From Clostridia bacterium (GTDB lineage Bacteria; Bacillota; Clostridia; Oscillospirales; CAG-272): 64,000 bases of DNA. Positions 6,829-62,547 of this stretch are shown here, piece after piece. Positions within the stretch are counted from its first letter, which is position 1. The number at the start of each line of letters is the position of its first letter. The stretch covers positions 7,043 through 71,042 of the forward strand of contig JAFQFS010000170.1 in assembly GCA_017398585.1 (NCBI GenBank). The letters are read 5' to 3'. The notes beneath the pieces were generated by a model, which was given only the letters and a program-made list of their open reading frames with translations, was not told where the DNA came from and did no database searches. Both the position numbers and the translations under genes were made by a program.

Positions 6829-6885
6829 CCGGGGAAACCTTTTTGCAAAAAGGTTTCCCCGGACCCCTTCCAAAAATCTTTGGAC
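6829..6885. repeat. NPR repeat, solo unit (hairpin + flank), between atpG and atpD
   Basis: CCGGGGAAACCTTTTTGCAAAAAGGTTTCCCCGG hairpin followed by ACCCCTTCCAAAAATCTTTGGA; same module as 21 others in the window. Confidence 0.9.
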
Positions 6886-6927
6886 TGGATAAAAATATAT
6901 AGTTTGGTTTGATATTGGAGTTTATAT

Positions 6928-8328
6928 ATGTCAACAGAAAAATATAACATCGGGCGTGTGACGGAAGTCAAGGGACCGGTCATTGACGTTCGCTTTGAGG
7001 AAGGTGTGCTTCCCGAAATTCTGTCGGCGCTCGAAATCGAGACCGGCGGACGGAAGCTGACCGCGGAAGTCGCACAGCATGTCGGCGACAATGTCGTGCG
7101 CTGTATCGCGATGAGCTCGACGGACGGTCTGGTTCGCGGAACGAAGGCGATCGACACCGGACGCGCGATTTCCGTTCCTGTCGGCAACGAGACGCTCGGA
7201 CGCATCTTCAATGTGCTCGGCGAACCTGTGGATGAAAAGCCCGCACCCGAATCGGCGGAACGCTGGGAGATCCACCGTCCCGCTCCGGCGTACGAGGATC
7301 AGGCGACCTCCACGGAGATCCTCGAGACGGGCATCAAGGTCATCGACCTTATCTGCCCGTATGCAAAGGGCGGTAAGATCGGGCTGTTCGGCGGTGCCGG
7401 CGTCGGCAAAACCGTTCTTATCATGGAATTGATCCATAATATTGCTACCGAACACGGCGGTATTTCCGTCTTCACCGGCGTCGGCGAACGTACCCGTGAA
7501 GGGAACGACCTGTACAACGAAATGGAGGAATCCGGCGTTCTTGCCAAGACCGCGCTTGTGTACGGGCAGATGAACGAACCGCCGGGAGCGAGAATGCGCG
7601 TCGGTCTGTCCGGTCTGACGATGGCGGAATACTTCCGCGACCGCGAAGGACAGGACGTTCTTCTCTTTATCGACAATATTTTCCGCTTCACACAGGCGGG
7701 TTCCGAAGTGTCCGCACTTCTCGGACGTATGCCGTCCGCCGTCGGTTATCAGCCGACTCTTGCAACCGAAATGGGTGCACTGCAGGAACGCATCACCTCC
7801 ACCAAGCAGGGTTCCATCACGTCCATTCAGGCGGTCTATGTCCCTGCGGACGACCTGACTGACCCCGCTCCGGCGACTACGTTCGCTCACCTCGATGCTA
7901 CCACGGTTCTGAGCCGTGCCATCGCGTCGCAGGGCATCTATCCGGCGGTCGACCCGCTCGAATCCACCTCCCGTATTCTCACACCCGAAGTGGTCGGAGA
8001 GGAACATTATCAGGTCGCAATGGCGGTGAAGCGGATCCTCCAGCGCTACAACGAACTGCAGGATATCATCGCCATCATGGGGATTGACGAACTGTCCGAA
8101 GAGGATAAGCAGACCGTCTCCCGTGCGCGAAAGATTCAGCGTTTCCTGTCGCAGTCCTTCAGTGTCGCGGAACAGTTCACCGGCAACCCGGGGAAATACG
8201 TTCCGTTGAAGGAAACCGTTCGCGGGTTCCGTGCGATCATCAACGGCGAATGTGACGCTCTTCCGGAAAGTGCGTTCCTGTATGTCGGAAGTATCGACGA
8301 AGCGTTTGAAAATGCGAAGAGAGCGTAA
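6928..8328 (+). CDS. atpD: F0F1 ATP synthase subunit beta
   Basis: 466 aa, Walker [12 protein letters not shown], strongly beta-like throughout. Confidence 0.98.
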
Positions 8329-8346
8329 CGCAGTCAGGAGGGAAGT

Positions 8347-61600: not shown

Positions 61601-62277
61601 GGAACCATGTACACCGCGCAGGTGATCGCCACGGGGGCGGCGTAAACTCGTCTCGACATTGCATAGCCGAGCACGATGCCGGTCACGACGATGATCGCGG
61701 CGACGGCAAACTTCACGAGAAGTTCTTCGTCATAGGAATACGGTTCCTCGGAGACGTACTGCATGTAGGTGGTGTAGCCCGCATCCGCCATATTGGTGAG
61801 GATGAGGTCGAACAGACGGCGGAACGATTCCTTCACGAACCCGATCGGATCGGCGTAGGAACCGAACATGTACGCCGCAATACCACCGGCGAGCACAAGA
61901 GGTGACACGATCCGCGAGATCTTGTGCAGGGATAAAGCCATCATGATGATCGTGATGACCGCACTCCACAGAATCACGAAGGAAGTGTCAACAACAATGG
62001 TATCCGCGCGGGCGTTGCTCAGGATCACGAGCTTGGCAGCATCGCCGAAGAACAGCATCATGCCGCAGACGCCCATGAACAGAACGAGCGCACGGAACAC
62101 CAGACCGACGATGGTATACGCCGTCGTCATCTCCCGCGAGGGGGAGACGGTCACCGGAGGCAGCGTTGATGCCGCGCGCAGCTTCGCCTTTTTCTTCTGC
62201 GCCGCGTCAATCTTCTGCTCCAGGGAGCTGGACTTCCGCTTCTTGCCCTTTCCCGGATTTTTCAATAATTTATTCAT
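58696..62277 (-). CDS. Transglutaminase-like domain membrane protein (TgpA-type) with Lys/Ala-rich insert
   Basis: 1193 aa from ATG at 62277; multiple N-terminal TM helices, about 170-aa KA-rich loop, large extracytoplasmic region, Cys-His-Asp core GYCVHFATS / DAHSWVEVYY, C-terminal TM. Confidence 0.85.
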   Translation of the reverse strand: MNKLLKNPGKGKKRKSSSLEQKIDAAQKKKAKLRAASTLPPVTVSPSREMTTAYTIVGLVFRALVLFMGVCGMMLFFGDAAKLVILSNARADTIVVDTSFVILWSAVITIIMMALSLHKISRIVSPLVLAGGIAAYMFGSYADPIGFVKESFRRLFDLILTNMADAGYTTYMQYVSEEPYSYDEELLVKFAVAAIIVVTGIVLGYAMSRRVYAAPVAITCAVYMVPVFMFNLTRTNKGLALALIFICGAVALYIFDCIYGGIFAARKEKKAAKKAAKKAKKDAKKAKKAAKLALKNSAAAAYNTAIEGGLPRSAAKKARQAVFAKDKKEKEEAKKAEAARIKYEKQQKLEAKRAAKEEKAAARLAKKEEAKKLRAKTMAAKKSKNPDDAAALKQAKADAKSAARAAKKEANKDATAAKVTKFKTVAAGGYAGVMAMIIAFLSIAIPMAAVQKNFPIIDFINNRMQLVRTYVTAYLMGDDVDLNSLAMYGGVAELNPRNITFETPRYTGQKLFSVESGYAAPVYMRSWIGTDYDMESDHWTSADSDEVLAYRDRFGASYTPDNITYFFNKYVYPTSLEINKVDQYRNLDDYGFRVFQLHVNRVSGTSKILFVPSVMNAGLGIMDFGSIEHTEKKYSAFYDGIYSSRFFGEGTSYSTSSFNPVLKAEGLAENFEGSIEYYNLAKVYADTIDIINEEIADNLLFDENREYTYETPLGEMKITGSDLSFLIEEFNADVAEIGYKPKAAPYFVENYLAMTSAERKTFHNSYDKELNYRDYTEETYRTTFGSESIAELADQILADAGIVQGEKYVHDKSKQETMNENQLKRLSPEERYGNVYDSWFTDTAGNVIPRHNAVMAVINHLRYNYEYTLDPECVQVELLDEDGNVVLDEEGNPIMVDYVESPTNLEAFLFEVKQGYCVHFATSAVALLRELGFAVRYDEGYIAANWNRTYDPAAVSTYRTSVRDYDAHSWVEVYYPAIGWVMYECTPSYCEEMYDLEDLSSSSTGSSGIDQSKVTVQEEIIPEETIVVDFGEDEVDYTALFIAIGVVIAVLVILSITWTILKIRANRAIAKRRKLIEEAKDERRFYDGLTDIHQYARDITDCIFDIFDGLGCPHETGELPSEYAVRIDGDYADISKHKITDVMAIIEKEEFGGTLTFRELTTLAEYLHEIISSIYAGLPAMQKLRMRYFMDVI

Positions 62278-62295
62278 AGAATATGATTTCCTTAT

Positions 62296-62547
62296 TTTAT
62301 GAGATTGAGGCATTGGGGAAGGAACTTTTTGAAAAAAGTTCCTTCCCCAAACCCCATCTTCAAAAACTTTTAAACGATGTGTAATGACAAGGCCCGGTGC
62401 AGATTTGGAATACCAAACCGGCGTGCAGTTCACAAAATCCTGTTTCCTGACGCTCTGCACTCACTCTGTCATCTTTTACAGATTGAAGTTTTTTGAAAGG
62501 GGCTTGGGGAAAACTTTTTTTCAAAAAAGTTTTCCCCATAAAATCCA
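62296..62547. repeat. NPR repeat, full-length composite copy between the DUF58 and transglutaminase genes
   Basis: Hairpins TTGGGGAAGGAACTTTTTGAAAAAAGTTCCTTCCCCAA and TTGGGGAAAACTTTTTTTCAAAAAAGTTTTCCCCAT; core boxes GTGCAGA (62397-62403), GTGCAG (62423-62428) and inverted TCTGCAC (62454-62460). Confidence 0.92.

Follow-up and report, generated by a model that had tools for sequence, protein, structure and literature searches.

A 64,000-nt stretch of DNA from an uncultured Clostridia bacterium (GenBank assembly GCA_017398585.1, contig JAFQFS010000170.1, positions 7,043 to 71,042 of the forward strand; hereafter the window) carries, in the spacers of its core genome, 22 copies at 17 sites of a polar palindromic module of ~65 nt that joins a nearly perfect 17-bp hairpin to a G-free 3′ tail. 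The many near-identical copies, their subfamilies, their occurrence as singles, doublets, and clusters, their gain and loss between relatives, their recombination patches, and the perfection of the hairpin together argue for a non-autonomous element of the kind exemplified by repetitive extragenic palindromic (REP) sequences, bacterial interspersed mosaic elements (BIMEs), and REP doublets forming hairpins (REPINs). We favor, as probable though far from assured, the reading that this is a REP/REPIN-like mobile palindromic family that is transcribed as a 3′ hairpin, acts as a weak attenuator, and is mobilized in trans.

Dense REP-type repeats are best known from Proteobacteria, and REP families are normally lineage-specific, the pairs of REP and REP-associated tyrosine transposase (RAYT) being vertically inherited. 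As far as Rfam and the searchable literature show, the present family is unnamed. Its three most telling properties, all missed by the first-pass annotation that had picked out the repeat from the letters of the window, are its polarity with respect to the upstream gene, its gain and loss, and its conservation across phyla.

Detection and Architecture of the Module

The arm pattern GGGGAAAMCTTTTT, with one mismatch allowed, matches the window 32 times against 0.05 expected, a number reached by none of 100 shuffles of the same sequence. An nhmmer profile built from the copies returns exactly 22 modules at 17 sites and no others at E<1e-3, as the first-pass annotation had counted, and a covariance model recovers the window modules at 65–90 bits. 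The gene map follows codon usage, with start codons corrected by Pfam domain positions and by the gene calls of a 99.8%-identical contig; once over-extended starts are trimmed, every one of the 22 modules is intergenic, the genes on either side having the support of codon usage and Pfam, in keeping with the annotation's statement that no copy falls inside a confident coding sequence. It further stated that most spacers longer than about 60 bp hold a copy; a hand tally of this map gives ~17 of ~29.

The basic unit has four parts. A weakly conserved, purine/A-rich 5′ flank ends in TTTC (position profile of 140 copies); the outer arm TAAAATGGAGTTYTC that had been described here shows only weak conservation, as an A-rich stretch followed by TTTC. 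The almost perfect 17-bp stem reads two to three variable pairs, GGGG, 3–6 A/G-rich positions, and CTTTTT, then a loop of 0–5 nt (GA in 61 copies), then the exact complement (AAAAAG-...-CCCC). A 3-nt linker (GAA, GAG, or AAA) leads into the G-free tail CCCCTTTCAAAAACTTT, that is, CCCCTTT(C)CAAAAA(A)CTTT, which often runs on as AAACTGGATAAAA; the earlier description of hairpin and 3′ tail (GAA followed by CCCCTTTCAAAAACTTT) was accurate. The tail is conserved far more than the 5′ flank, which makes the unit polar.

Three size classes are built from this unit: single modules of ~65–75 nt; medium forms of ~110 nt in total, in which the module continues into a B arm (GACAAAG-N-GTGCAGATTTGG); and doublets of ~240 bp, in which two inverted modules, tails inward, enclose a B domain, in turn palindromic and variable at its center. 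The long form is palindromic over its whole length, with terminal inverted repeats bounding a short noncoding element. Long doublets occupy 5 sites of the window, the other 12 being single sites. About 15 further doublets occur in other genomes, with ~150-bp doublets in Thermodesulfobacteriota, and tandem arrays and larger composite palindromes also occur outside the window.

The copies in the window are as follows (coordinates, strand, form, and setting; labels such as L106, here and below, denote other contigs or loci compared with the window).
6821..6890, + strand: single module, hairpin 6829-6862 plus tail; 10 nt past the atpG stop, inside the atp operon
8608..8854, unstranded: long inverted doublet between the convergent atpC and EF-G genes; module 8612-8683 (+), B domain 8684-8779, module 8780-8849 (-)
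10956..11031, + strand: single module upstream of EF-G, pointing against the local (-) transcription; absent in L106
11755..11850, - strand: medium form, module 11776-11847 plus B-arm-like extension; directly after the stop of the MIF-family gene
12362..12465, - strand: medium form between the divergent MIF-family and Fur genes; the L106 spacer has a different, longer form
17779..17853, - strand: single module, 6 nt past the GH109 stop; orthologous copy in L106
22539..22783, unstranded: long inverted doublet past the ftsK stop, with modules 22540-22609 (+) and 22704-22779 (-) around a B domain
27482..27556, + strand: single module, 17 nt past the yceG/mltG stop
27612..27835, unstranded: long doublet (inverted doublet 27616-27835); a foreign hairpin nested at ~27655-27680 interrupts the left module, 27612-27718 (+), and a short B domain separates this from the right module, 27764-27835 (-)
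28762..28865, - strand: module with a foreign 21-nt hairpin in the linker between hairpin foot and tail; between divergent genes
37943..38015, + strand: single module, 16 nt past the stop of a penicillin-binding protein (PBP; ftsI/spoVD-like) gene, before murE, inside the dcw cluster
47734..47808, + strand: single module, 12 nt past the ftsZ stop
50144..50219, - strand: single module after the stop of a DUF1667 gene, at a convergent junction
54607..54667, unstranded: hairpin-only variant, no tail; lies in a convergent spacer of 53 nt, the hairpin (54624-54653) having outer GGAGG/CCTCC arms of its own
57810..57881, + strand: single module upstream of an XRE-type helix-turn-helix (HTH)/tetratricopeptide repeat (TPR) regulator gene; anti-oriented
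58447..58694, unstranded: long inverted doublet after the stop of a 1254-aa transglutaminase-like gene; modules 58451-58522 (+) and 58618-58689 (-)
62302..62549, unstranded: long inverted doublet after the stop of gene 62548-63999; modules 62306-62380 (+) and 62476-62547 (-); 85% identical over 229 nt to L068, another species

Several larger or interrupted arrangements were encountered alongside these forms. Composite palindromes of ~700 bp bounded by modules or other hairpins, and tandem periods of ~95, 190, and 275 bp, are found at L017:1675-2368, L043:637-1364 (also L092 and L084), L096:44-497, L003:2111-2730, and L077:451-712. A Nitrospirota metagenome-assembled genome (MAG) repeats a unit of ~150 bp (L004:3546-3693, L041:5352-5504) with a long pure A/G tract 5′ of the hairpin, which echoes the purine-rich 5′ flanks of the Clostridia copies. 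Unrelated hairpins of 19–23 nt are nested in modules at ~27655-27680 and ~28790-28812 of the window and at ~16010-16035 of L106; in two cases the inserted hairpin, once GTAG-tagged (GTAGTTACGCTTTGCGTAACTAC), falls exactly within the linker that joins the hairpin foot to the CCCC tail, and in the third case it breaks up the 3′ arm. Insertion or nicking may have a hot spot in the linker.

Pairing Constraint on the Stem

For covariation, 150 copies from the window and 99 other loci were aligned to the covariance model. Standard pairs fill 98.2% of the stem cells and changes on both sides are seen in 15 of the 16 stem pairs (381 cells), figures that lean toward structure, given that the alignment was fitted to the model. 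None of 500 shuffles attains this level of covariation, and sliding the partner by one column lowers pairing to 81%. An independent palindrome search counts 2,299 Watson–Crick pairs against 15 mismatches away from the loop. Compensated changes are also visible between individual orthologous copies of different species, namely in L027 and L040 (AAAAC/GTTTT vs. AAACC/GGTTT) and in the copy after GH109, where the window has GAGAACC/GGTTCTC and L106 has GAGGACC/GGTCCTC, a compensatory G:C/A:T difference.

Position and Orientation Relative to Genes

With the orientation of a module defined by its tail, an open reading frame (ORF) of at least 150 codons ends within 60 nt upstream of 100 of the 157 modules of a first sample, mostly at 2–20 nt and with the hairpin first, against 13 modules that have such an ORF on the opposite side. 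An independent sample of metagenome contigs yields 41 co-oriented and 13 anti-oriented modules among 64, and 10 of 15 non-Clostridia copies are co-oriented, with none purely anti-oriented. Most anti-oriented copies are the second half of a doublet. On either strand of the window, a module takes the direction of the gene it belongs to, which ties the bias to genes rather than to the direction of replication.

The genes concerned are those of a core genome: the atp operon, EF-G, ftsK, tmk, yceG, PBP followed by murE, and ftsZ. Modules stand inside operons at atpG|atpD and PBP|murE, and some copies occupy divergent promoter regions. At three convergent junctions, namely, atpC/EF-G, yceG/brkB, and that of the AAA_3 gene 53573-54613 with the ACT-domain gene 54667-55146, the module is the only hairpin. 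Other gene ends have ordinary U-tract terminators (for example, after 1202, 15503/15567, 32957, 56645, and 58033).

The position profile reveals no U-tract directly 3′ of the stem, which is followed by GAACCCCTTTC, and a terminator scan of the window gives no excess (22 found vs. 23.4 expected), with only one module flagged, and that on the opposite strand. Lacking both a U-tract and an excess over shuffled sequence, the modules are not strong intrinsic terminators; a canonical terminator is ruled out by the missing U-tract together with the copies inside the atp and dcw operons. At L139:222-320 a canonical terminator, GC-rich and with a U-tract, comes immediately after a module and precedes a fragment of an IS200-TnpA pseudogene, and L039 has the same order of module and terminator, which suggests that the module itself does not terminate transcription. 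A candidate promoter (TTGACA) in the B domain was rejected by eye, there being no usable −10 box at the right spacing.

Gain, Loss, and Recombination Between Relatives

The window is 99.3% identical to MAG GCA_017439645.1, and those homologues that bear a source name are recorded as "Clostridia bacterium" or "Eubacteriales bacterium". L106 (GCA_052831985.1), whose AtpG is 89% identical, has the same gene order over 20 kb. The window–L106 comparison reveals presence/absence polymorphism at orthologous sites, listed here by junction.
atpG/atpD: filled in the window; empty in L106 (34-nt spacer) and in L111 (20 nt); remnant without hairpin in L108
flavin-reductase gene/MIF gene: filled in the window, ~85 nt directly after TAA; empty in L106, with a coupled spacer of 12 nt
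upstream of EF-G: filled in the window; empty in L106
atpB/atpE: empty in the window; filled in L106
after atpC: left arm of a doublet and no terminator in the window; canonical U-tract terminator in L106, a homologous one in L108
after GH109: filled in the window and, by an orthologous copy, in L106

The 12-nt spacer of L106 (TAA|GGAGTAAATCACATG) indicates that the ~85 nt of the window were inserted directly after the TAA. Over the syntenic region, module density amounts to 0.5 per kb in the window species, 0.24 in L106, and 0 in L108, L110, and L111. Strains that are 99.8% identical differ on a large scale in one respect only, a patch in which a module and ~20 nt beside it have been exchanged. 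In the comparison of window 8770-8854 with L102:6410-6506 and L103 (strains 98.8–99.8% identical), it is solely the right module of the doublet, with those ~20 nt, that has given way to another variant, which looks like gene conversion between copies.

In L105:1852-2032, of the same species, a pfkB-family gene follows atpC instead of EF-G; the rearrangement cuts through the doublet, which has lost its second hairpin. The GH3 glycosidase gene region of the window (15567-17789), which is flanked by a canonical bidirectional terminator and the GH109 module, has no counterpart gene in L106, in which nothing but the module stands between the genes for the ABC-3 permease and GH109.

Distribution Across Genomes and Phyla

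A strict hairpin pattern matched at least 101 contigs among GTDB species representatives, and a tail pattern at least 120 metagenome contigs; in all, more than 220 contigs other than that of the window carry the motif. Most of the matches listed belong to uncultured Clostridia and Oscillospiraceae from the guts of ruminants, rabbits, termites, and humans. Complete modules with the tail are also found in Defluviitaleaceae; in Desulfovibrionaceae, Mailhella, Thermodesulfobacteriota, and a 73%-GC Desulfarculaceae contig; and in a 337-kb Nitrospirota contig of 39% GC, on which the protein beside the module has its best named matches in Nitrospirota. The hosts span 36–73% GC over Clostridia, Desulfobacterota, and Nitrospirota.

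Within this range, subfamilies of linked stem and tail variants are common to different genomes at unrelated sites, as expected from master copies. One subfamily is at least 93% identical between one Thermodesulfobacteriota contig and two Clostridia contigs, and the long form is 80–85% identical between species. Outside Clostridia, the spacer of doublets is 35–45 nt long and unrelated in sequence.

No module was found in viral contigs, phages, or plasmids, where the low-complexity filter of BLAST may hide weak matches, or in 5,426 E. coli genomes. Rfam returns no match at gathering thresholds over the whole window, and at E up to 10 only sub-threshold chance microRNA hairpins, which rules out a known RNA family. 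Literal-string and keyword searches of the searchable literature brought up no description or printed sequence of the module, and those directed at RAYT/REPIN and TIRYT systems yielded nothing beyond background literature on these. The first-pass annotation, which had matched the repeat to no Rfam or named family, is upheld by these searches.

Comparison With Known Repeat Systems

Among described systems the closest in kind are REP, BIME, and REPIN. Like them, the module is an extragenic palindrome in many copies (22 in 64 kb, with a 17-bp stem); they too are palindromes of 30–40 nt in hundreds of copies, placed after stop codons and inside operons, arranged as singles, inverted doublets, and clusters, with compensatory stem changes and gain and loss between relatives. 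The module differs from REPs in having neither GTAG nor CGTC at the stem foot (position profile of 140 copies) and in its long conserved G-free 3′ tail, which makes it strongly polar; from REPINs in the doublet spacer of ~170 nt with its own conserved palindrome, the B domain; and from REP–RAYT systems in that no RAYT gene was found next to a module copy in the sampled loci. As it has no GTAG/CGTC tag, and as the sampled loci gave no RAYT link, we file it outside the REP–RAYT family proper. The annotation's 'not REP/BIME' is accordingly true of the family and untrue of the category.

Another parallel is found in the genes of tyrosine transposases that go with terminal inverted repeats (TIRYT genes), which are RAYT-like Y1 genes flanked by inverted repeats starting GGGGWSAS and associated with families of repeats in a number of phyla (Di Nocera et al., 2013, PMC3733652, who described TIRtrons and TIRYTs; subclass 2.1 of Quentin et al., 2018, PMC6006769). 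These families are described as only moderately abundant (PMC3733652; PMC6006769). The module shares with them the occurrence in diverse phyla and the sometimes self-complementary, dimeric, or clustered form. Some of its arms fit GGGGWSAS (GGGGAGAC), whereas the common GGGGAAAAC and GGGGAAACC do not, and no TIRYT gene flanked by the module was seen in the sampled loci.

The remaining comparisons are more distant. Correia/NEMIS, ERIC, RUP, and BOX elements, palindromic miniature inverted-repeat transposable elements (MITEs) of Gram-positive and other bacteria, are likewise intergenic, palindromic or modular, and 100–250 bp long, and can be co-transcribed and affect neighboring genes, and the single, medium, and doublet forms recall the A-B-C modules of BOX; however, there is no sequence similarity, no TA or other duplication visible at the sites compared, and no matching insertion sequence (IS), and here the 65-nt half is the commonest and apparently autonomous unit. 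Intrinsic terminators share the GC-clamped hairpin a few nucleotides past the stop, and a doublet stands in place of one after atpC; but the module has no U-tract, is found inside essential operons, and coexists with ordinary terminators elsewhere in the genome. Integron attC sites resemble it as polar folded palindromes directly after, and co-oriented with, an ORF; unlike them, the modules come without cassette arrays, integrase, R/L core sites, or extrahelical bases, beside core housekeeping genes (atp, dcw, ftsK, EF-G). The attC core RYYYAAC/GTTRRRY is not apparent by eye in the position profile, no dedicated search having been made.

Proposed Mechanism and Its Difficulties

In the REP/REPIN-like reading, copies are gained, lost, patched by inter-copy recombination, and assembled into ~240-bp inverted doublets as REPINs are, and persist almost only just downstream of stop codons in the orientation of the upstream gene. 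The co-oriented polarity and the distance from stop codons suggest an element read in the sense of the upstream transcript. We infer that modules are co-transcribed and fold into a hairpin of −20 to −35 kcal/mol at the mRNA 3′ end or in its intercistronic part. REP and BIME sequences of E. coli protect mRNA 3′ ends from exonucleases and attenuate transcription, and these documented roles fit the position of the module. It could similarly serve as a barrier to 3′-to-5′ exonucleases and as a weak or conditional attenuator, a function that would allow for intra-operon copies as well as for a doublet in place of a terminator.

Spread would proceed through single-stranded DNA, the hairpin and its 3′ tail being recognized by a trans-acting enzyme encoded once per genome. 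A perfect hairpin beside an invariant tail is the typical substrate geometry of HUH enzymes; by this analogy we propose mobilization at the level of single-stranded DNA, with an HUH/Y1 enzyme (RAYT, TIRYT, or IS200-like) as the most plausible candidate.

A number of observations weigh against this proposal. In ~1.2 Mb of sampled module-bearing loci, no Y1, RAYT, or other transposase is flanked by the module, at an expectation of about one such gene per genome beside hundreds of modules; the longer copy with a transposase or RAYT that the first-pass annotation had suggested looking for did not turn up. ORF clusters of 101 loci contain no recurrent transposase, only ABC ATPases, solute-binding proteins, XRE-TPR regulators, LepA, and similar proteins, and all checked ORFs enclosed by module pairs are housekeeping genes, with no transposase and no parent IS. 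Searches by tblastn with an E. coli RAYT and an IS200 TnpA and with the L061 RAYT matched only the RAYT-like ORF of L061 and the IS200 pseudogene fragment beyond the terminator in L139. The L061 Y1 ORF (7531-7881, -) retains the HIH and Y motifs, has a disrupted N-terminus, lies 7 kb from the module, and carries, inside and upstream, GTAG-tagged REPs of its own (GTAGGGGCGACCATTGGTCGCCC; 7728-7750, 7893-7913). The genome of L061 therefore has, in addition to the module, a REP system of the classical type, whose REP is a different one. No target-site duplication is visible in three filled-versus-empty comparisons, in which the flanks have diverged (AtpG 89%). The primary sequence of the module is nearly identical across phyla, whereas REPs are lineage-specific.

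The stem itself adds to these difficulties. Its G:T (G:U) and A:C mismatches are equally rare, 6 and 6 in ~2,300 pairs; as a test for the RNA strand the comparison finds no wobble signature and is uninformative, the stems being almost free of mismatches. Without an excess of G:U over A:C, the pairing constraint would point to DNA or to both strands, not to one RNA alone. Selection at the level of DNA, a spread restricted to perfect hairpins, and template-switch correction are possible causes, and the last of these, 'quasipalindrome correction', could yield compensatory changes without selection.

Alternative Explanations

A bolder reading of the same observations, which we put forward as unlikely but worth stating, is a new class of gene-3′-polar mobile element common to Bacillota, Desulfobacterota, and Nitrospirota, in which dedicated machinery reads the hairpin and the invariant G-free tail, and copies are placed or retained just behind stop codons and are able to replace terminators. 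Candidates for this machinery are an enzyme, HUH-type or other, that would be new, and a conserved factor that binds RNA. Near-identical sequences at 36–73% GC, the 8:1 orientation bias, and the wobble-free stems would all be explained. We assign about the same low likelihood to the module being a cis-regulatory RNA element of the host rather than selfish DNA, that is, a factor-dependent terminator or a processing or stabilizing signal, whose hairpin and G-free, C-rich tail would be read by a conserved host protein or the ribosome (Rho- or NusA/NusG-assisted termination, an RNase site, or the anti-Shine-Dalgarno-like CCCCUUUC; the tail appears to resemble the 16S 3′ end, ACCUCCUUUC). Such a reader would account for both the polarity and the cross-phylum identity: strict co-orientation at 2–20 nt from stop codons, a tail conserved far more than the 5′ flank and the same in genomes of 36–73% GC, a doublet replacing the canonical terminator after atpC, and modules as the sole hairpin at convergent junctions are all in its favor. 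It fits poorly, however, with copies that interrupt essential operons (atpG|atpD, PBP|murE) or occupy divergent promoter regions, with close relatives that do without copies at the same junctions, and with a copy number that varies among relatives between 0 and 0.5 per kb. Mobile DNA typically shows doublets, tandem arrays, and subfamily structure, most functional RNA helices, unlike these stems, do have wobble pairs, and the absence of the motif from E. coli means that the reader is not a universal machine acting alone.

Considerably less probable is a conventional MITE derived from a DDE-type IS, in which the ~240-bp form would transpose with terminal inverted repeats of ~90 bp and singles would be solo ends left by deletion or recombination. 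The near-perfect palindrome of the long form, with conserved ends, a variable center, and 80–85% identity between species, would suit such an element, as would sites filled in some relatives and empty in others; yet singles outnumber doublets (12 vs. 5 sites in the window, and most of ~330 copies elsewhere) and are polar and intact instead of decayed, the filled-versus-empty comparisons, with their diverged flanks, display no target-site duplication, no longer copy with a transposase between its arms was found, and the doublet spacer outside Clostridia is just 35–45 nt of unrelated sequence. Least probable of all, in our estimate, is a structural or binding site acting in DNA (a cruciform or a nucleoid-protein, gyrase, or recombinase site), with no RNA role and with palindromy kept since both strands fold. 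The near absence of wobble pairs and mismatches, the repeated words AAAACTTTT and AAAGTTTT in alternating orientation, and the foreign small hairpins exactly at the hairpin–tail linker of two copies, which suggest an exposed or nicked position, are consistent with a site of this sort, but a pure DNA site has no reason to be co-oriented with the upstream gene or to keep 2–20 nt from its stop, on both strands.

Implications

What lifts the family above a routine repeat is the combination of polarity with conservation of sequence across phyla. If the REP/REPIN-like reading holds, uncultured Clostridia of the gut, together with two or more other anaerobic phyla, have an abundant REP-like system of their own, and the same 65-nt sequence in phyla of very different base composition would contradict the picture of lineage-bound, vertically inherited REP/RAYT pairs, pointing to horizontal spread of the mobilizing function or to an unusually strict shared reader. 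The module would then reshape essential operons (atp, dcw) at their 3′ ends and in their intercistronic spacers and could replace terminators, and would matter for operon prediction, terminator annotation, and expression models in lineages known from MAGs only. Its density and turnover would make it usable as a marker for strain typing and assembly breaks, and it is a source of spurious ORFs and pseudo-peptides in annotation.

Regulators and Other Repeats Near the Modules

XRE-type HTH regulators with TPR domains (~390–430 aa) recur near modules, with two in the window (48885-50060, +; 56645-57805, -) and 12 ORFs in 8 loci (L098, L058, L024, L007, and others). As a partner protein for the module they were rejected; they are ordinary RNPP-like paralogous regulators.

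The region 41120-41345, taken in the first-pass annotation for a possible decayed copy, has no match to the nhmmer profile and proved to be a different repeat, a run of three unrelated small hairpins, CAAGCCTTTTTAAAGGCTTG, CCAGAGACAGCGTCTCTGG, and then CGCGGACCGCAGTCCGCG. Eighty-four nucleotides of it recur at 90% identity in L105:3012-3095 and at 79% in L037:2515-2588, the latter copy adjoining a module, and the same intergenic 'toolkit' may include this repeat as another of its mosaic motifs.

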